A stretch of 10,301 nucleotides of DNA from a virus (IMGVR_UViG_2531839668_000006); one strand, 5' to 3'; shown: positions 2,253 to 10,301, numbered from the stretch's first letter. Numbers and translations are program-made. Notes: a model not told the origin generated them from the sequence alone.

Positions 2253-2486
2253 TCAATGCAGCCAGCTGTCGTCTTCCCACACCTTCTGCATAATTTTCAT
2301 CACTTGTTTTCTTTCTTCGTCCAGTTGCAGTCCGGTCAGTTCCACACCGTTAGAGCTACCTTTACGGATACGGATTACCGTTTTGGGATACAGGGGGCGC
2401 AGATTGCGGTAAAGCTCGGATTCAAGGGCGTCCAGGGTAGACTGGCTAATCTTCTGCTCTTTATCGATCATTATTTCAATGCGCAT
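2253..2486 (-). CDS. dinI: DinI-family protein (77 aa)
   Basis: From the internal ATG at 2486..2484 the product MRIEIMIDK...LDALESEL...ERKQVMKIMQKVWEDDSWLH aligns along its length with E. coli DinI as recalled (MRIEVTIAK...IDALAGEL...QETWESADDW). GAGGTG lies 6 nt upstream of the ATG. Confidence 0.85.
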   Translation of the reverse strand: MRIEIMIDKEQKISQSTLDALESELYRNLRPLYPKTVIRIRKGSSNGVELTGLQLDEERKQVMKIMQKVWEDDSWLH

Positions 2487-2496
2487 AAAAGTCACC

Positions 2497-2685
2497 TCAG
2501 TTGATGACATCCATTGAGCGGTTGTATTCGTGGCTTCTGATTTTTGCCATGAGTTCATCAGTCAATTCAGAAACCCACTGCAGAGCCAGCCCCTTCTCTT
2601 CATCACTACACTCACTAGCCGCTACAAGCTTAAGAAAAAAATCAATGCGCTGGAGCTTCAAAGACTCCAAAAAATAGTCCTGCAT
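2497..2685 (-). CDS. Small protein (62 aa), first gene of the LexA-controlled operon; positional analogue of the 186 Tum antirepressor
   Basis: ATG at 2685..2683 with a strong AGGAGG about 6 nt upstream (reverse complement of 2692..2697). Sits directly downstream of a LexA-box promoter and 10 nt upstream of the DinI-like gene. No family recognised from the sequence. Confidence 0.55.
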   Translation of the reverse strand: MQDYFLESLKLQRIDFFLKLVAASECSDEEKGLALQWVSELTDELMAKIRSHEYNRSMDVIN

Positions 2686-2726
2686 CTTTCCTCCTATGAC
2701 ACCACACGCAATACTGTATGCATAAC

Positions 2727-2769
2727 CACTGTTTATATTTACAGTATATAATAATCTTACTGATGTAAA
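2727..2769 (-). promoter_or_regulatory. SOS promoter with LexA operator (CTGT-N8-ACAG) overlapping the -10 element
   Basis: 2727..2746 reads caCTGTttatatttACAGta, matching the LexA box consensus TACTGT(AT)4ACAGTA. On the - strand a -35 TTTACA (2769..2764) and -10 TATACT (2748..2743) put the operator across the -10 and start site. A CTGT half-site also lies at 2714..2717. Confidence 0.7.
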
Positions 2770-2838
2770 ACGTTTTTTTACGCTTATCAGCCTGATATGC
2801 CTGGTATTATTAAGAGCACGAATTGTTAACCAGCGTAA

Positions 2839-5253
2839 TTAATACAGGTTCCGCCACTTATCATCTTCCTGCAAACGCTGGTTCCGATAGAAGATACGCA
2901 GGCCTGCTCCTGACGGAATACTGCCGCCGCGAAGGAGTAAATCGACCTCTTTCTCGCTGCCATCAAATCCTCTGGATTTCAGTTCATAGACGAGCTGCTG
3001 TCGTTGATGGTCTGTAATTCGCTGTTTGTAGTCTCTACGCCGTTTCGGTTTCACCAGACGTAACCTTGCAGCCAATTCCCGGCGCTCCTTTTTGTTCATA
3101 CTGTGCAGGTAATCGTGCAACACCTTGTCATCCATGCGGGTAATGTCCGTTCTGGGGTCCCCATCAGCTGATTTATCTTTCTCCTGTTGGTTCAAATTTT
3201 CAGCAAGGGGACAGTTATTGCCACGAGTCCAAGGGGCGCAAGCGCCCTGGTCGGCTGCCGCCTCCTGAACGTCAACGGCCTTACGAACCATTTTCCACTT
3301 CACGGCATGAGTGCAGATCTTGCCCTCTGCAATAGGTGACCAGATGCCATAAATACGAATGCCGTGATCGCCATAGGCGGTCGGCTCTTCGTTGATTTCA
3401 TAAGCAGTTCTGATGAGGTGATATTTGCGGGGAACCAGTACGCCACCCTGCTTCATGATGTAGGTGGCAAAACAACCAGCATCAGCAGCAGCCAGAATGG
3501 CATCAAGGCGCGGGTTATCCAGTACCGGCGCACCTGCTTTTTTGTCCCCCTGTTGCCTTGCCGCCTGACCAGCCAGCAATCGCAGTTCACGGTAAGCCTG
3601 ACGCCCCGGAATGCCAAAGAAGCGGAATTGCTGAACACGATGCAGAGACGCCCAGGCATTAACGTATTCAGCATTATCACGCAGGGATTTCCCCGTTTCC
3701 TTGCTGATCTCGCCAGCCAGACCACGCCCGTCAATGTTCTTACTGATGTATTTCGCGATGTAGCTTGTTGGCGTACCTTTGCGCGGGTTAATCAACTCAG
3801 ACTTAAAGCGCGGCCCAGTGTTATTGCCCAGCTCCTCGCGGTCTTCACGGATGGCAAACTTACGCAGTAATGCAGTGATGGTGCGGCGGTCTTTTTTGCG
3901 CATAAAACACAACAGGTGCCAGTGAACTGTACCGTCATGATGCGGCTCAGCCACCCGCACGCCATACCACCGCAATCCGGCTTTGTGCATCGCCTTACGA
4001 AATGCAGCAAACATGCCGACCAGATAATCACTGCTTTGTCTTACCGTCGCATTTGTCCAGGTTGGGTTGGGCCTGCCGTTATTTAGCGTGGAATGGAAAC
4101 GTGACGGACAGGTGATGGTGTAGAAAACGGCGCAGTCACCGCGCATTTCCGCGATAAGCTCCAGACCTTTAACACAGGCCATCATCTCATTGCGGCGATG
4201 CGCTGGGTTGCTGCTGCTGGCGTTTACCACATCCTCCATGTCCAGCGTGTCGCCGTCTTCGTTCACCAGTTCATGAGAACGGAAAAACTCCAGCGACTTA
4301 CGGCGCTGCTCACGTTTATGCATCACGGCTTCATAGCTGACATAAGGAGATGCTTTTTTGCTGACAAGGCAGACTGCACGCAACTGCTCTTCCCGCCATT
4401 CGCAACGCATCTTCCATAATTTCCGATACCACCAGTCGGCGCACAACATACGCGCCAGCGAACCCGGAATGAGTTCATAGGGCACGGGTTTACGGCGGTT
4501 TCTTTTCCGACGGAGTTGCTCAAACGCAGGCGGGATGACATCCAGACGCAGGGTTTCCGCTGCCACCCTTTCCCATGTATTGCGGATTTCTTCTGGCTTA
4601 ACGTCATCGGTGGCATACAAATCGCCACAAGCGGCATCAAGGCACATACTCATATGCGCAGCTACCAGGGTGGACAGGCGTTTCACCTGATCCTGACTCA
4701 TTTCAGGCAGGATCAGCAGGCCGTCCAGCCCTTCATGGCTTGCCATAAAGCGAAAAGATGCAGATAGCTGACTGTCGCGTACATGCTCCAGTCGTTCCAG
4801 ACATGGCTTAATCGTCTCACGTAAATAGCGGGAATAAGCCTTTGGCCTGCCCAGGCTGCTGAAGTATTCAATACGTTGCATCAGCGGCTTGCTGATATGG
4901 GAAGGCTGGGCGTTGACGTCCGCCAGAATGACCATATCCGGATTAAAACGCTGCTGCTCATGCGCCAGCTTTGCCCGACTAATGAGCTTATCCTGTTCCA
5001 TTTCGCGCTGGACAGGATCACGGGATTCATTAAAGAAATAACGCTCCCAGACCTGATCACTCAGCGCCTCACGGCGCAGCTGTTCCTGCTCGTTATCGGC
5101 AGCGTACAGAGTGATCAGGTTTGAAAGCGTAGAAACCGGCGCAACTTCCACCGGGTCCAGATAAGGGTTAATGGCCTTTTTCGGGCTGTTCCATGAGAAC
5201 GATGCGGCAGCTTCGTTAAAGCCGCAGCAGTTGTTCATATCGGCATGACTCAT
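2839..5253 (-). CDS. A: P2 gpA-type rolling-circle replication initiator (804 aa)
   Basis: Contains an HUH-type motif VHWHLL (codons at about 3916..3924) and paired active-site tyrosines SYIAKYISK (Tyr codons 3762..3760 and 3750..3748), as in phiX174/P2 gpA. Start ATG at 5253..5251 overlaps the Dam stop codon (ATGA). Confidence 0.9.
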
Positions 5254-6107
5254 GCACGTACTCCGTACACGGCAGAACTATCCACGCCACGCGAATAATC
5301 AAATCCCACCCAGCAGCGCGGCCCGGAAACAGCAATGATTTCTGTTGCTGATTTACCCTCGCCAGCTGCCACACCGATGCTGCGTTTTGCCTTGATGTAG
5401 TGGTGAGTAAAATTGCGATACAGCGAACGGATCAGGGATGTGTCACTGTTAGAAACAATGACCGGATGTCCTTCTGATGACCGATGTTCAAGAACAGATG
5501 CCAGGTGATACTGGTCATCTTCAGTGAAGCCGTCAGTGTGATAGCCGGAAAACGTACCGTCATACGGCGGATCGCAATACACCACATCCCCCGCCTTCAA
5601 CATCGCCAGCGTTTCATCAAAGCTGGCGCAGATAAACGTTGCTCGCTGGGCCTTTTCTGCAAATGCGCGAATTTCTTTTTCAGGGAAATACGGATTTTTA
5701 TAATTACCGTAGGGAATGTTGAAATGCCCGCTCTTGTTATAGCGACATAAACCACGGTAACCGTGACGATTGAGATACAGGAAATATACCGCTTTCATGA
5801 AATCAGTAATTTCAGTTGAGTAATTAAACTCCTGCCTTATGTTGTAATAAGCCACCTCCCTGTTTGCGATCTCAAATAAAACTCTGGCGCGAGATATAAA
5901 CGATTCACAATCAGCGGCAACCTTTTTATAGAGGTTGATTAAATCAGGATTAATATCCGCAACCAGATAGCTGGGATAATCCGTCTCCATCATCACAGCA
6001 CAGGAACCCGCGAAAGGTTCAACCAGTCGCGGGCCAGCAGGAAGATGTTTTTTCAGTTCGGACATTATGGCAGTTTTATTTCCCGCCCATTTCAGGATGG
6101 TGCTCAT
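5250..6107 (-). CDS. dam: DNA adenine methyltransferase, Dam/D12 class (285 aa from internal start)
   Basis: Motifs [18 protein letters not shown] (AdoMet binding) and DPPY (catalytic). Preferred start is the ATG at 6107..6105, preceded by GGAGGTG and overlapping the TraR-like stop (ATGA); the longer ORF from 6167 overlaps the upstream gene. Confidence 0.9.
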
Positions 6108-6331
6108 ACAGCACCTCCGTTGTAATGTTTGCCTTTCAGCTCTGCGATTTCCTGACAGGTAATGCAAAGCTGCACACCCGGAATGGCACGGCGGCGTGCT
6201 GGCGGAATTGGCGCTTCACACTCAATGCAAAGCACGCGGGACACGCCCGGCGTTTTGGCACGGGCAGCACGGATATGGCGTTGGCGTTCTTCTTCAACGC
6301 GCTGCTGTACGAGATCCATTGCATCAGCCAT
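6104..6331 (-). CDS. TraR/DksA-family C4 zinc-finger protein (75 aa)
   Basis: CIEC...(16 residues)...CITC zinc-finger spacing typical of phage TraR/DksA-like proteins. Start ATG at 6331..6329 overlaps the upstream stop (TAATG). Confidence 0.8.
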   Translation of the reverse strand: MADAMDLVQQRVEEERQRHIRAARAKTPGVSRVLCIECEAPIPPARRRAIPGVQLCITCQEIAELKGKHYNGGAV

Positions 6332-6564
6332 TAGTGGATCTCCTGCGCTTCGTTCTGGATTGCTTCAGCAGTCACACGAAGCAGTTCTGCCGCTTCGACG
6401 TGGGTTAGCTGGCGGGATGTGATATGACACGCCAGGCTATCAAGGCGAGCTGCCATTGCTTCAGCCCTTGCCCGGCGTTCTTCCAGACGAGCCTCTGTCA
6501 GTAAAATATTAAGCCCTGCGTCATCCGGTCCGGTTTTGGTCGAGAGGGTTTCAATATTACGCAT
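6331..6564 (-). CDS. Hypothetical early-operon protein (77 aa)
   Basis: ATG at 6564..6562 preceded by AGGAGA with 7 nt spacing; the ORF-track start at 6570 is a TTG. Acidic, Ala/Arg-rich and probably helical. Position matches the small orf80-83 block of P2-like phages. Confidence 0.55.
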   Translation of the reverse strand: MRNIETLSTKTGPDDAGLNILLTEARLEERRARAEAMAARLDSLACHITSRQLTHVEAAELLRVTAEAIQNEAQEIH

Positions 6565-6631
6565 AATCAATTCTCCTGAATTTAGATAAAGGGATGCCCG
6601 GCGGGTTTACGCCATTAATTTCATTGGTTGG

Positions 6632-6973
6632 TTAATTCGGCATGGTTAGCCGTCTGGGAAATAAGCTCACCACTGCACGAAAATGATTCATTGCTTTAAT
6701 CAACTCCCGCTTTTCGTCAGTGGTCAGCTCATTAATGCTGATGCTATGACGTTCAGCTGGAATTTTTGCCATAAAGAATATGGCAGCCAGTGCCCGTTTA
6801 TTTTGTTCGTTATTGATATCCCGTGGATCACGCATATCTTTAATAAACCGCTCAAGCTCTGACTCAATATTCAGGCCAAATACTTTCGCCCTTAATTCCG
6901 CAATGTGATTAAGTCCATTCAGGCGTTCTCCGGGGCTTAATGGAACAGTCGCCGCAGCGCCATTAATTGCCAT
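6632..6973 (-). CDS. Hypothetical early-operon protein (113 aa)
   Basis: ATG at 6973..6971 with a GGGGGA Shine-Dalgarno-like sequence 8 nt upstream; same orientation and tight spacing as neighbours. No family recognised. Confidence 0.6.
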   Translation of the reverse strand: MAINGAAATVPLSPGERLNGLNHIAELRAKVFGLNIESELERFIKDMRDPRDINNEQNKRALAAIFFMAKIPAERHSISINELTTDEKRELIKAMNHFRAVVSLFPRRLTMPN

Positions 6974-6995
6974 ACTTCATATCCCCCAAACGCAC

Positions 6996-7220
6996 CTATC
7001 GTTCTTTGTTCTTACGGTAACGCTCAAGGGGAGATACATTTTTTCGTACCGTCTCTTTAACCTGCTCTCCCCGTAAAAACGTCCCATCCTTTAGCGTGAA
7101 AAAGTAACTGCCATCGCCCGACAACGACGGATAACAACAGAGCAAATCATCTTCAGGTACTGAATAACTCTCCCCTCTGTAACAAAACTGATAAACCACT
7201 TCACTTTCCGCTGCATACAT
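6996..7220 (-). CDS. Hypothetical small protein (74 aa)
   Basis: ATG at 7220..7218 with an upstream GGAGA. Protein-like composition (MYAAESEVVYQFCYRGESYSVPEDD...). Overlaps the 3' part of the Fil-like frame. Confidence 0.45.
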   Translation of the reverse strand: MYAAESEVVYQFCYRGESYSVPEDDLLCCYPSLSGDGSYFFTLKDGTFLRGEQVKETVRKNVSPLERYRKNKER

Positions 7221-7387
7221 TTTGACTTTCTCCGTTTCCTCGTGGTCAATTCAGACAGCAATTCATCTTGTGAATGACATGGATGCCAGCGTTTTCCATC
7301 CTCACCCATGATCCAGCCGTGACCGTAGTGCATTGCCGGGCTTTGCTTTACCAGCAGCGATGCAAATGATGGTTCTTTCGTCAGCAT
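7091..7387 (-). CDS. Possible Fil-like early protein (frame open for 98 aa; 3' portion doubtful, possibly frameshifted)
   Basis: ATG at 7387..7385 lies 8 nt after the CII stop with GAGGTG upstream. N-terminal part (MLTKEPSFASLLVKQSPAMHYGHGWIMGEDGKRWHPC...) looks protein-like; the C-terminal 40 residues are Arg/Cys-rich and overlap the 74-aa ORF. Fil assignment is by position and vague recall. Confidence 0.3.
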   Translation of the reverse strand: MLTKEPSFASLLVKQSPAMHYGHGWIMGEDGKRWHPCHSQDELLSELTTRKRRKSKCMQRKVKWFISFVTEGRVIQYLKMICSVVIRRCRAMAVTFSR

Positions 7388-7394
7388 AAGCACC

Positions 7395-7904
7395 TCACAG
7401 CAAACCGAATGAAGCACCGAGTCCGGTCACGGTATCAACTGCACTCGCCATCGCAGGGTTAGCCTGTAAACGGGCCTGCAATGAAACAGCAGCCAACGCC
7501 ATCAGTCGTGTTACAGAGTTAATGCTGCTGATAGCATCACGACGACCTGCACTGGTTTTTACATCGCCAGATACCGCACCTGCAGCAACACGCCCGATCT
7601 CTGCGGTTGCACTCATGACGTAATGTGGCAGTTTCTCTTTTGCCACCTCATTAATCGGTACACATGGCAGACAATGAATCTGTGCCAGAAAACCATCTAC
7701 CAGCGTTGAATCTTCAGTCAGATCGGTAAGCAGCCAGATTTCTGGTGCGGTTAATAGATGAGGCTGAGCTGGGTTCAGCTTGTTCCGCAGAATCTGCACA
7801 TTCATGCCTGCACGTTCTGCCAGTTGCACCAGATTGTGGCGCAGTGCAAATGCACGACAGGCTTCATCAAAATGTGGATGTTTGGAAACTTGGTAATCAA
7901 ACAT
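7395..7904 (-). CDS. cII: 186 CII-like early regulator (169 aa)
   Basis: Second gene of the early operon, immediately after the Apl-like gene. Length from the ATG at 7904 matches the 169 aa of 186 CII as I recall it. The ORF-track start at 7910 is a TTG; AGAGG lies 8 nt upstream of the ATG. Confidence 0.7.
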
Positions 7905-7936
7905 GGTCAATGCCTCTGATGTATTTCAGAATCGAA

Positions 7937-8158
7937 CTAATTAAGGTTTAGATTGCATTCTGAAAGCGCATCAACGGTCATGGCTGCTATGTTGATCATC
8001 ACTTTTTCGCGTTTTTTATCTTTGCGCAAACGGTGACGGATAAGGCGTCCGTCAGCCAACATGTCATTGATGGTATCGATGGACAGCCCTGTCAGCTCGC
8101 TATAGCGCTCAATAGTCACATGAGGCGTGGTAAGAGTGATTGAAATGTTAGGTCTCAT
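7937..8158 (-). CDS. apl: Apl/Cox-like small HTH regulator/excisionase (73 aa)
   Basis: First gene of the leftward operon, divergent from cI. HTH-like segment [25 protein letters not shown] followed by a basic tail. Size and position match Apl (186) / Cox (P2). Confidence 0.65.
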
Positions 8159-8283
8159 GATGCAACATTCCTCGTTTAATGATGATTAATCAGGACGAAT
8201 ACGGATCGTTTGTACTTTGTGAACACCATAAACATACGATCGCAAAATGAAATCGTCAAGATAAAAGTTCACTTGGAGTGACC
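8159..8283. promoter_or_regulatory. Lysis-lysogeny switch region between apl and cI with candidate pR and operator-like inverted repeats
   Basis: Candidate - strand promoter: -35 TTGACG (reverse complement of 8254..8259), 17 bp, -10 TATGTT (reverse complement of 8231..8236). Inverted repeat GATCGTTTGT (8204..8213) / ACATACGATC (8232..8241), one mismatch, overlaps that -10. A second repeat TTAAT-N4-ATTAA lies at 8176..8189. No convincing rightward promoter for cI found. Confidence 0.45.
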
Positions 8284-8853
8284 ATGAATTTGGAGAAAGG
8301 CGGACGAGGCGCTATAGAGCGCATGGTAGAAGCTTATGGATTCAAAACTCGACAGGCGTTGTGCGATCATTTAGGAATCTCTAAAAGTACACTCGCCACA
8401 CGCTACATGCGTGACTCATTCCCAGCAGAATGGGTAATCCAGTGCGCCCTTGAAACGGGCACCTCGCTTAATTGGCTCACAACCGGACATGGTTCAAAGC
8501 AAACTTCAGGTAATACAAATACTATGGAAGTTGCTAAATATGTATTATCTGATGGTGCCTTGCGTGAAGACGGTTTTTATATTTTTGATAAGGGATTTCT
8601 ACCCTCTACGTTTAAAAAACCTTTTGTCATCACAGATAACAATTCTGAATTTATTTGTGATAAAGAATTTGATGATATACGTGATGGTAAATGGGTAATA
8701 AGTATTGATGGCGAAGTAACGATCCGTGACATTACTCGTTTACCCGGTGGAAGAATCTTCGTCGAGGGTGGAAACAGAGCCTTCGAATGTAAGATAGAAG
8801 ACATTGAAATAATTGGTAAAATTATAAGTTTAACAGTCAAGTATGTTAAATAG
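8284..8853 (+). CDS. cI: 186-type CI repressor (189 aa)
   Basis: N-terminal HTH region (AYGFKTRQALCDHLGISKSTLATRYMRDSFPAEWVIQCALETGTSLNWLTTG) matches the 186 CI-type repressor pattern as recalled. Length matches 186 CI (about 192 aa). GGAG lies 5 nt upstream of the ATG at 8284; the ORF-track start at 8278 is a GTG. Confidence 0.8.
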   Translation: MNLEKGGRGAIERMVEAYGFKTRQALCDHLGISKSTLATRYMRDSFPAEWVIQCALETGTSLNWLTTGHGSKQTSGNTNTMEVAKYVLSDGALREDGFYIFDKGFLPSTFKKPFVITDNNSEFICDKEFDDIRDGKWVISIDGEVTIRDITRLPGGRIFVEGGNRAFECKIEDIEIIGKIISLTVKYVK

Positions 8854-8868
8854 CACCGGGAGGAAACT

Positions 8869-9060
8869 ATGCTTGGTAAGGTATTTTTTGTGGTTTTGTC
8901 ATGTTCTTTGTTATTAAACCCACTAACTACCTATGCTAGAAATTATCCCTGCTCAGGGAAAAAGGGAGGTGTTTCTCACTGTACCTCAGATGGCAAATTC
9001 GTTTGCAATGATGGAACTATTAGTAAATCCAAAAAAATCTGTACTAAAAACTCACGATAA
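8869..9060 (+). CDS. Small secreted Cys-rich protein (63 aa) between cI and int
   Basis: Strong GGGAGG with 5 nt spacing before the ATG at 8869. N-terminal hydrophobic signal-like segment ([22 protein letters not shown]), then a Lys/Gly/Ser-rich region with four cysteines. AT-rich. Confidence 0.55.
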
Positions 9061-9195
9061 CTTTTGCTTTTATATCTGCGTCTAAAATAAAAATGAGCCG
9101 CAGGTTAACCGCAAAAGTTACATGCTCACATAGCAAAAAGAATAGCCAACTTCATTATGGCTTCAGTGAGATGTATGGTCGTAGGATTTCATACA

Positions 9196-9224
9196 TTGAC
9201 ACTGGTTATACATACAGTAAAAAT
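9196..9224 (+). promoter_or_regulatory. Candidate int-proximal sigma70 promoter (-35 TTGACA, -10 TAAAAA)
   Basis: Perfect TTGACA at 9196..9201, 16-17 bp spacer, then TAAAAA/AAAAAT at 9218..9224, about 25 nt upstream of the int ATG and its GGAGGG at 9235..9240. Confidence 0.3.
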
Positions 9225-9248
9225 GCTCTCTACTGGAGGGCATTTTTT

Positions 9249-10301
9249 ATGGCAGTACGAAAACTCACCACAGGGAAATGGCTTTGCGAATGTTACCCCG
9301 CCGGACGAAGTGGGCGTCGTGTGCGTAAACAATTCGCCACCAAAGGCGAAGCTCTGGCTTTTGAGCGTCACACTATGGAAGAAACCGAATCAAAGCCATG
9401 GCTGGGCGAATCAGTGGATCGTCGAACCCTGAAAGACGTGGTTGAGCTATGGTTCAAACTACATGGTAAATCTCTGACTGCTGGGCAGCATGTCTATGAC
9501 AAATTGCTGCTGATGGTTGACGCTCTGGGCAATCCTCTTGCAACCGATCTCACCTCTAAAATGTTTGCCCACTATCGAGATAAACGCCTGACAGGCGAGA
9601 TCTACTTCAGCGAGAAATGGAAGAAAGGAGCAAGCCCGGTCACCATTAACCTGGAGCAAAGCTATCTAAGTAGTGTTTTTAGCGAACTATCCCGTCTGGG
9701 CGAATGGTCGTATCCGAACCCACTGGAGAACATGCGAAAATTCACCATCGCAGAAAAAGAGATGGCATGGCTTACCCATGAGCAGATTGTTGAATTACTG
9801 GCTGATTGCAAACGTCAGGACCCAATTCTAGCACTGGTAGTTAAGATATGCTTAAGCACAGGCGCACGCTGGCGAGAAGCCGTAAATCTTACTCGTTCAC
9901 AGGTGACCAAATACCGAATTACCTTTGTAAGAACGAAGGGGAAGAAAAACAGAAGTATCCCTATCAGTAAAGAGCTTTACGAAGAGATCATGGCGCTTGA
10001 TGGGTTCAATTTCTTCACAGACTGCTATTTTCAATTTTTATCCGTGATGGAAAAAACGTCTATCGTGCTCCCTCGCGGTCAACTCACACACGTTCTGCGC
10101 CATACGTTTGCGGCGCACTTCATGATGTCGGGTGGAAACATTCTGGCCTTACAAAAAATTCTCGGACACCACGATATAAAAATGACTATGCGTTACGCAC
10201 ATCTGGCACCGGATCATCTGGAAACGGCGCTCCGTTTCAATCCTCTGGCAACGCTGCCAAGTGGCGACAAAGTGGCGGCAGCGGTTGGCATTACCCCGTA
10301 A
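9249..10301 (+). CDS. int: P2-family tyrosine integrase (350 aa from internal start)
   Basis: C-terminal catalytic region (CLSTGARWREA, RITFVRTKGKKNRSIPIS, HVLRHTFAAHFMMSGGNILALQKILGHHDIKMTMRYAHLAP) closely resembles P2 Int as recalled. The ATG at 9249 has GGAGGG 8 nt upstream and begins MAVRKLTTGKW, like P2 Int MAIKKLDDGRY. The ORF from 9093 is a probable over-extension. The TAA stop is the last codon of the window. Confidence 0.9.
   Translation: MAVRKLTTGKWLCECYPAGRSGRRVRKQFATKGEALAFERHTMEETESKPWLGESVDRRTLKDVVELWFKLHGKSLTAGQHVYDKLLLMVDALGNPLATDLTSKMFAHYRDKRLTGEIYFSEKWKKGASPVTINLEQSYLSSVFSELSRLGEWSYPNPLENMRKFTIAEKEMAWLTHEQIVELLADCKRQDPILALVVKICLSTGARWREAVNLTRSQVTKYRITFVRTKGKKNRSIPISKELYEEIMALDGFNFFTDCYFQFLSVMEKTSIVLPRGQLTHVLRHTFAAHFMMSGGNILALQKILGHHDIKMTMRYAHLAPDHLETALRFNPLATLPSGDKVAAAVGITP

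Follow-up and report, generated by a model that had tools for sequence, protein, structure and literature searches.

The apl-cI intergenic region of a 186-family, P2-like prophage as a probable lysis-lysogeny switch with a fixed GATC in its lytic promoter

The stretch of DNA analyzed here (the window; 10,301 nucleotides of the viral sequence IMGVR_UViG_2531839668_000006) carries a P2-like early region, which was identified by listing open reading frames (ORFs) and by family searches and whose orientation is opposite to that of the customary 186 map. From position 2255 to 10301 the window is 99.5% identical to a complete 33-kb prophage that lies between rcdA and ybjL in E. coli GPEC709. The segment 7900-8900 had a match in 657 of 5426 complete E. 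coli genomes, and at least 80% of it was covered in 530 of the 5426. B-lineage laboratory strains are among the matching genomes, with ~95.5% identity. The genes of the early region and of the leftward and rightward transcription units are the following.

2839-5253, minus strand: replication gene A
5250-6107, minus strand: phage dam, a D12-class N6-adenine methyltransferase gene in the pR operon (Pfam MethyltransfD12, E 1e-76)
6104-6331, minus strand: traR-like gene
6331-6570, minus strand: DUF2732 gene
6632-6973, minus strand: DUF5347 gene
7395-7904, minus strand: cII (Phage_CP76)
7937-8158, minus strand: apl/cox-like gene, 73 aa, first gene of the lytic operon (phrog_575, Cox-like excisionase/repressor, E 6e-31)
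8284-8853, plus strand: cI, immunity repressor of the 186 CI family, 189 aa (Pfam and PDB 2FJR)
8869-9060, plus strand: small ydcA-like ORF between cI and int
9249-10301, plus strand: int

ORFs, family matches and the RefSeq annotation of the GPEC709 prophage agree that cI and apl/cox are divergent, that cII comes next in the lytic operon and that int lies downstream of cI. The gene order int, cI, apl, cII, fil, DUF2732, traR-like gene and A is common to the window and 186. The CI protein matches the Pfam families Phage_CI_repr (E 2.7e-33) and Phage_CI_C (E 5.2e-29), and over residues 10-183, which is nearly its full length, it matches the crystal structure of 186 CI (PDB 2FJR; E 3.3e-31); its match to Peptidase_S24 was below threshold. 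The apl product shows a weak match to 186 Apl, and the counterpart of dam in relatives is annotated as DNA adenine methylase. The apl-cI intergenic region is exactly 8159-8283, bounded by the apl ATG at 8158-8156 and the cI ATG at 8284, in agreement with the RefSeq annotation of the 99.5% identical prophage.

Two regions outside the switch deserve mention. The ORF at 8869-9060 encodes 63 aa of the YdcA family (phrog_6000) with a signal-peptide-like N-terminus, and it would be expressed in lysogens from the lysogenic promoter, as is typical of a lysogenic-conversion gene. Positions 1-2254 hold cargo that differs from the GPEC709 prophage, with ORFs at 214-621, 625-1095 and 1462-2193; one PHROG match was found among them (phrog_1353, ORF 1462-2193).

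We consider it probable (about 0.8) that the lysis-lysogeny switch of a P2-like prophage of the 186 family is made up of the apl-cI intergenic region and the first ~20 bp of apl. This reading is built on gene identities, motifs, conservation and positional homology to 186, all of which are direct observations. The switch has its own immunity type. It is that of a heteroimmune member of the well-studied 186 family and therefore adds little in itself. Its one unusual feature, in what is otherwise an ordinary switch, is a fixed GATC in the lytic promoter of an operon that also encodes a Dam methylase. The two promoters on which this reading depends have the following elements.

8254-8259, minus strand: -35 hexamer TTGACG of pR, the putative lytic promoter for apl-cII-fil-...-dam-A (promoter scan)
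8231-8236, minus strand: -10 hexamer TATGTT of pR, spacer 17 bp, predicted start ~8224 (promoter scan)
8140-8145, plus strand: -35 hexamer TTGAAA of pL, the putative lysogenic promoter for cI, the ydcA-like ORF and int, inside apl codons 5-7
8163-8168, plus strand: -10 hexamer CAACAT of pL, 4 nt beyond the apl start codon, predicted start ~8175

For comparison we used loci with this CI (19 in bacterial genomes and 80 in IMG/VR), 80 loci with 186 CI, 80 with a 42%-identical CI and several annotated phages. Bit scores were calculated on 10 representative loci that are less than 75% identical to one another over 79 nt. The leftward promoter TTGACG-17-TATGTT, which the initial annotation had seen close to the cI start and had taken for the equivalent of lytic pR, was found on the minus strand at 8259-8231, and its assignment is upheld by hexamers that are kept in the 10 diverged variants and by a position homologous to that in 186. 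It agrees with the consensus at 9/12 positions and is the sole site of at least 9/12 in 7800-8500, a yield that is not above chance alone, given a mean of 1.5 such sites in shuffles of this 700-bp region. The TTGAC of the -35 hexamer is invariant across the 10 switch variants at 2.0 bits per position. The -10 pattern TAnnnT is kept in all switch variants, and its T, A and T likewise reach 2.0 bits in the 10 representatives. Neither the promoter nor the inverted repeat that overlaps it (see below) is significant alone; they carry weight because they are conserved and positionally homologous to 186. A literature search found no mapped start site, footprint or reporter result for this phage.

The plus strand of the apl-cI intergenic region contains no promoter site of at least 9/12, the best being 8/12, as had been suspected when no convincing rightward promoter could be found there. 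The missing rightward promoter can be named as the putative positional homologue of 186 pL, straddling the apl start codon. Its TTGAAA and CAACAT hexamers, separated by a 17-bp spacer, agree with the consensus at 8/12 positions, a score equal to that of 186 pL, and their offsets from the apl ATG are identical to those of the annotated 186 pL (TTGCGA, CATGAT). The pattern 'TTGAAA, 10 nt, CAT, 4 nt, CA[AGT][CT]AT', in which CAT is the complement of the apl start codon, occurs in 177/184 loci of the clade of the window, and the pattern 'TTGCGA, 10 nt, CAT, 4 nt, CATGAT' in 76/80 186-type loci. Constraints on apl as a coding sequence and on its ribosome-binding site could account for part of this conservation. 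The placement at 8140-8145 and 8163-8168 bears out the earlier expectation of a lysogenic promoter inside or left of the apl start. Furthermore, offsets equal to those of the mapped 186 pL support the face-to-face promoter arrangement of 186 and P2 that had been proposed for the locus.

The distance from -10 to -10 is 62 bp in the window and 76 bp in 186, where the annotated start sites are 62 bp apart. Applying the 186 offsets to the -10 hexamers of the window, we predict facing start sites at ~8224 and ~8175, some 48-50 bp apart. Start sites in P2-like phages are separated by 40-60 bp, a range that includes the predicted ~48 bp (PMC7498355).

The spacer of pR contains a short stretch that bears on where cI is transcribed from.

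8242-8248: variable patch of the pR spacer, GCAAAAT in the window and GCACAGT, GCACGGT, GCATCAT or others elsewhere

This patch is the sole variable island of the intergenic region; 80 near-identical loci carry 12 or more alleles of it. Nucleotide diversity reaches 0.17 at 8242-8247, compared with 0.012 for the whole intergenic region and 0.08 at third codon positions of cI; the intergenic region is thus more conserved than synonymous sites in these 80 relatives. We read the patch as the one stretch that would be constrained by neither polymerase nor regulators. The idea that it is a hypermutable or diversifying site was discarded, its values of 0.32-0.42 at 8246-8247 being no higher than those of common synonymous sites. 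The allele of the window creates a CAAAAT hexamer, similar to a -10, on the plus strand.

That hexamer raises the alternative that cI is maintained, in lambda-like fashion, from a promoter back to back with pR in the intergenic region itself, TGAACA (8220-8225)-17-CAAAAT (8243-8248), which at 8/12 consensus positions equals the pL candidate. However, its -10 lies within the variable patch itself and is replaced by CACAGT or CACGGT in most relatives, it has no counterpart in 186, and the competing pL geometry at the apl start is kept across both clades. We give this promoter little weight because the CAAAAT hexamer is not conserved, and we hold such a source of cI transcripts to be very improbable.

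The remaining landmarks of the region around pR are an inverted repeat and the Dam sites that it contains.

8204-8213: distal arm GATCGTTTGT of the inverted repeat, with the second GATC at 8204-8207 (inverted-repeat search)
8232-8241: proximal arm ACATACGATC, over the pR -10 (inverted-repeat search)
8238-8241: promoter-proximal GATC, a Dam site that fills positions 13-16 of the pR spacer (-17 to -14) and is separated by 1 nt from the -10 downstream

The initial annotation had described an inverted repeat with two Dam sites overlapping the -10 and had proposed it as a CI operator. The repeat is there, with GATC at 8204-8207 and 8238-8241: the arms GATCGTTTGT and ACATACGATC are complementary at 9/10 positions, lie 18 nt apart, and the right arm shares 5 nt with the -10. 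The proposal that it is the operator fared less well. When the 125-bp region was shuffled with its dinucleotides preserved, 13% of the shuffles contained a 10-nt repeat with at least 9/10 complementary positions and a loop of 3-40 nt. The distal GATC and the distal arm are restricted to the immunity type of the window (the window and the loci L006 and L007), and three other loci, L002, L003 and L184, read CACGATTA at the position of the distal arm. The proximal GATC is invariant amid unrelated, presumably operator, flanks and is therefore not the source of the operator specificity of this CI. In the Klebsiella relative L006 the arms have changed without compensation, and they do not covary. 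Their centers are separated by 28 bp, more than a single helix-turn-helix dimer could span, and the sequence of the proximal arm is accounted for by the -10 hexamer and the conserved GATC. The repeat is probably not an immunity-specific CI operator. It would seem to be largely a coincidence, in which a clade-wide GATC linked to the promoter meets type-specific sequence at the promoter-distal edge of the Apl region and immunity module.

Some observations do speak for the arms as a CI operator, or as a pair of half-sites on a CI wheel, with Dam methylation of both GATCs tuning CI. Both arms are kept in the same-type Klebsiella and Enterobacter relatives L006 and L007, the proximal arm overlaps the -10, a suitable place for a repressor, and the 28 bp between arm centers may be set beside the paired sites 32 bp apart that 186 CI binds at pB (PMC3675496). 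These have to be weighed against a repeat that by itself has P ~0.13 in shuffles, a proximal GATC that is not immunity-specific and already explained together with the -10, changes in L006 that are not compensatory, and the lack in other variants of a second GATC at a consistent distance, and on balance we find an operator of this kind unlikely. The repeat could also act as RNA, forming a hairpin in the ~109-nt cI leader that would be transcribed from pL, and the minimum-free-energy fold of 8175-8300 indeed pairs both arms. Nevertheless, the z-score of that fold is -1.2 and 23/200 shuffles fold at least as well, relatives show no compensatory changes, and the window has no Rfam match, which makes a functional hairpin extremely improbable. 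Coincidence is the explanation of the repeat that we prefer, and it leaves the promoter-proximal GATC as the element to be explained.

This GATC behaves as part of the promoter. In the promoter-anchored alignment 22/22 loci read TT[GT]AC[AG], 12 nt, GATC, 1 nt and the -10 hexamer, and the sequence on either side of this promoter core is unrelated between variants. The GATC has 2.0 bits per position in 10/10 representatives, equal to TTGAC and to the T, A and T of the -10. Off the GATC the values are 0.3 bits for the adjacent base, between GATC and -10, a mean of 0.78 for the remainder of the spacer, and 0.3-0.8 (~0.45) for the flanks. The same element is found in 78/80 of the further IMG/VR loci in which CI is 42% identical, and in the phages RE-2010 and Cartapus. 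It is absent from the 186-type loci (0/80) and from Klebsiella phage 4LV2017. By locus, GATC at the equivalent promoter position was recorded in L002-L022, L186 and L268-L347.

Most relatives with the GATC resemble the window in having dam in the pR operon. Of the 74 loci that carry the GATC and have sufficient flanking sequence, 60 have dam there, as do annotated phages of the comparison set, and 14 show no dam within 4.5 kb. In 4LV2017 dam is present and the GATC absent. The 186 clade has neither, a contrast that is confounded by phylogeny. A strict link between dam and GATC was consequently rejected, as there are exceptions both ways (4LV2017, and the 14 GATC loci without nearby dam). The hosts are all enterobacteria, a group known to be Dam-positive. 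Host Dam would therefore suffice, and a missing phage dam does not remove methylation.

As the most likely role of the GATC we propose that, through it, Dam methylation would act on pR strength or on CI binding or rebinding, and the conservation of the element makes such an input into the switch more interesting, not less. A bolder version, tentative and rather doubtful, is that in a large clade of 186-like enterobacterial phages the GATC is an obligatory Dam site whose methylation state would set pR strength or CI rebinding and which, with dam in the pR operon, would close an epigenetic feedback loop. The site would be unmethylated under bound CI, hemimethylated after the passage of a replication fork and fully methylated once phage Dam has been made.

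The GATC might instead be kept for reasons independent of methylation, either as a base-specific contact of RNA polymerase or as a core contact for the near-identical helix-turn-helix of CI in the clade. The CI proteins of the clade share SKST[LM]A[TN]RY[ML]RD, whereas 186-type CI has a different helix and a pR without GATC. The spacer bases just upstream are semi-conserved (WWWWGY-GATC), and the GATC is retained in the 14 loci without nearby phage dam. On the other hand, the GATC is never a dyad center and has no fixed partner site in any variant, and the base between it and the -10 is free (0.3 bits). We know of no sigma-70 element that reads GATC at -17 to -14, and hosts are all Dam-positive, so that methylation persists without phage dam. 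A contact of this sort is a genuine possibility, if one that we put well below even odds. An input from Dam methylation is the reading that we carry forward. A search of the literature found no description of a role of GATC or Dam at 186-like pR and no methylome data covering such prophages, an absence that does not prove novelty.

If the repeat is set aside, binding sites for CI, Apl and CII have to be sought elsewhere, and the following candidates emerged.

8267-8283, minus strand: candidate CI operator GGTCAC-TCCAA-GTGAAC, resembling the 186 A-type sites and overlapping the cI ribosome-binding site
8208-8224, minus strand: candidate CI operator GTTCAC-AAAGT-ACAAAC, a half-dyad with 3 mismatches, over the predicted pR start
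8171-8200, minus strand: candidate Apl/Cox boxes, three 10-bp-phased ATTnn direct repeats ATTCGTCCTG, ATTAATCATC and ATTAAACGAG, read from the sequence, between the predicted start sites
7878-7904, minus strand: pE CII-binding repeat ATGTTTG-N13-CAAACAT at the cII start; pE reads rightward toward cI

Operators of the immunity repressors of P2-like phages lie over the lytic promoter (PMC7498355). By homology CI would act over pR as well, through operators for which we offer the listed candidates as a hypothesis. Candidate half-sites of the form G(T/A)GAA(C/T), as in the 186 A-type sites, are found on both sides of pR; they fit better than the repeat and are still hypothetical. The dyad at 8267-8283 is one mismatch away from GTTCAC-N5-GTGAAC, and 0.01 such sites are expected per window. 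At the position of 8208-8224 the variant L002 has a perfect palindrome, GTACCCAATTGGGTAC, and it reads GGGTAC where the window has GTGAAC. Dyads of the form 6-N5-6 and of any sequence are not more numerous in the intergenic region than expected by chance (P = 0.23). When the motif G[AT]GAA[CT] was scanned over the whole 33-kb GPEC709 prophage, the densest 100-bp window was the pB region, with 3 copies against a background of 0.215 per 100 bp. This cluster is an independent test because the motif was not derived from pB, and it would fit a late activator that is controlled by CI, as that of 186 is. The pB region (L103 34830-34919, GPEC709) has its three hexamers on the same strand around a TATCAT -10, upstream of an ogr/B-like gene.

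Several other routes to a CI site were followed and abandoned. The helix-turn-helix regions of CI are nearly identical among variants with unrelated switch DNA, so the rule that a recognition helix predicts its half-site fails, and half-sites could not be derived in this way. Similarity between GCAAAATGAAAT in the pR spacer and GCAAAATGGAAT at pB was dismissed as a shared CI site, pB staying constant while the patch varies (16 paired contigs). A perfect 9-nt inverted repeat, TTTCAGAAT/ATTCTGAAA (7924-7932 and 7957-7965), surrounds the apl stop codon, at the place of the FR CI site that in 186 overlies the pE -10, with a sequence unlike the candidate CI half-sites. As an FR-like site it was rejected, given that L002, L003 and L184, which represent three switch variants, share one different junction sequence; therefore no immunity-linked pattern is demonstrable.

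Three further observations concern CI and its sites in a wider sense. In the cargo, ATTCACGATAGGTGAAC (1629-1645) matches the 186 A-type consensus ATTCAC-N5-GTGAAT at 11/12 positions, with ~0.02 such sites expected per window; it lies inside ORF 1462-2193 (phrog_1353), which is absent from the otherwise 99.5% identical GPEC709 prophage. The CI of some relatives, 4LV2017 (L184, 5948-6889) and L003, has two N-terminal helix-turn-helix domains in tandem. The pR of 4LV2017 carries TGTGAAC and TGTGAAG as direct repeats and has no GATC.

Apl/Cox proteins have their operators over the lysogenic promoter or in the interval between start sites; in 186 the Apl operators, which lie between pR and pL, are direct repeats with a spacing of one helix turn (PMC7498355). 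The candidate boxes of the window have a comparable placement. The CII-binding repeat agrees with the annotated 186 CII site in its location and in the sequence of both arms, and its conservation implies a second, CII-dependent rightward route to cI, upstream of the first.

Beyond gene A, a LexA-box-like sequence, CTGTTTATATTTACAG (2729-2744), lies upstream of two ORFs.

2497-2685, minus strand: 62-aa ORF, phrog_698, function unassigned in PHROG
2253-2486, minus strand: DinI-like ORF, 41% identical to the C-terminal half of 186 Tum

This putative LexA-controlled operon (2253-2744) probably supplies SOS induction. The 62-aa ORF showed no match to the N-terminal half of Tum, and its product may be the antirepressor of the phage.

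Comparison with mapped systems places the locus within the family. In the 186 record, pR (TTTACT-17-TATATT) lies beside the cI start with three CI sites over it, seven Apl sites lie between the promoters, and pL (TTGCGA-17-CATGAT) is on the other strand, its -10 being 4 nt outside the apl ATG and its -35 starting from 13 nt inside apl. Also in 186, CI sites of the A-type (pB, FL and FR) read ATTCAC-N5-GTGAAT. The window shares with 186 the two-domain CI fold (2FJR), a lytic promoter adjoining the cI start, predicted convergent promoters, a putative pL that straddles the apl start, a CII site at the cII start and a putative LexA-controlled operon beyond gene A. Unlike 186, it has a pR that reads TTGACG-17-TATGTT with GATC in the spacer, where the 186 spacer contains a dyad operator and no GATC. 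The predicted start sites are ~48 bp apart instead of 62 bp, and the -35 lies 24 nt from the cI ATG instead of 14 nt. Further differences lie in an Apl of 73 aa with weak similarity to 186 Apl, in the dam gene of the early operon, which 186 does not have, in FL/FR-like flanking CI sites, none of which was found in the window, and in a Tum homologue that consists of the DinI-like half alone, after an unrelated 62-aa ORF. Across 186-type loci (L188-L267) the arms of the pR spacer operator change in compensatory fashion (ATCTC..GAGAT, CTTCTC..GGGAAG, AACTCC..GGGAGTT), and this natural covariation supports the known central pR operator.

P2 likewise has facing early and lysogenic promoters, a Cox-type gene first in the lytic operon, and a Pe (TTGACA-17-TAGTAT) that also contains GATC in its spacer. 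However, the GATC of P2 is 3 nt further upstream and overlaps operator O1, and Pc is wholly upstream of cox. P2 also uses a repressor from another family, the 99-aa protein C, whose binding sites are direct repeats (PMC2995052). P2 Hy dis, a hybrid of P2 and a defective E. coli B prophage, was considered as a source of this immunity and rejected, its repressor being of the P2 C type and not CI (PMC1904268).

The closest parallels for the GATC itself come from elsewhere. The promoters of IS10 pIN, Tn5 transposase and P1 cre are Dam-sensitive, with a GATC that overlaps the -10 or -35 and an effect that has been measured. As in these promoters, the GATC of the window is fixed in the polymerase footprint and could tie the promoter to the state of methylation or replication; unlike theirs, it lies at -17 to -14, and any effect on the promoter is predicted from sequence conservation.

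Taken together, these elements suggest how the switch would work, the start sites, all contacts of protein with DNA and any effect of methylation being those that we infer. A strong leftward pR, starting at ~8224, would transcribe apl, cII, fil, dam and replication gene A, and a weak rightward pL, starting at ~8175, would transcribe cI, the small ydcA-like ORF and int. The two would overlap head-on by ~48-50 bp, and pR activity should therefore suppress pL by transcriptional interference. CI, with its 186 CI fold, would sit over pR, shutting the lytic operon and freeing pL, and Apl would occupy phased repeats in the interval that separates the start sites. The first burst of cI would come from a CII-dependent promoter at the cII start. 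The LexA-controlled operon, with its 62-aa protein and the homologue of the DinI half of Tum, would be the probable source of SOS induction.

The prophage is very common in E. coli. Given its matches in 657 of the 5426 complete genomes, a right promoter map would help both the annotation of these prophages and the reading of prophage transcriptomes. If the epigenetic loop is true, the switch would be sensitive to replication or its induction irreversible, and if methylation acts at the GATC, a class of genetic switch familiar from textbooks would have a new epigenetic input.
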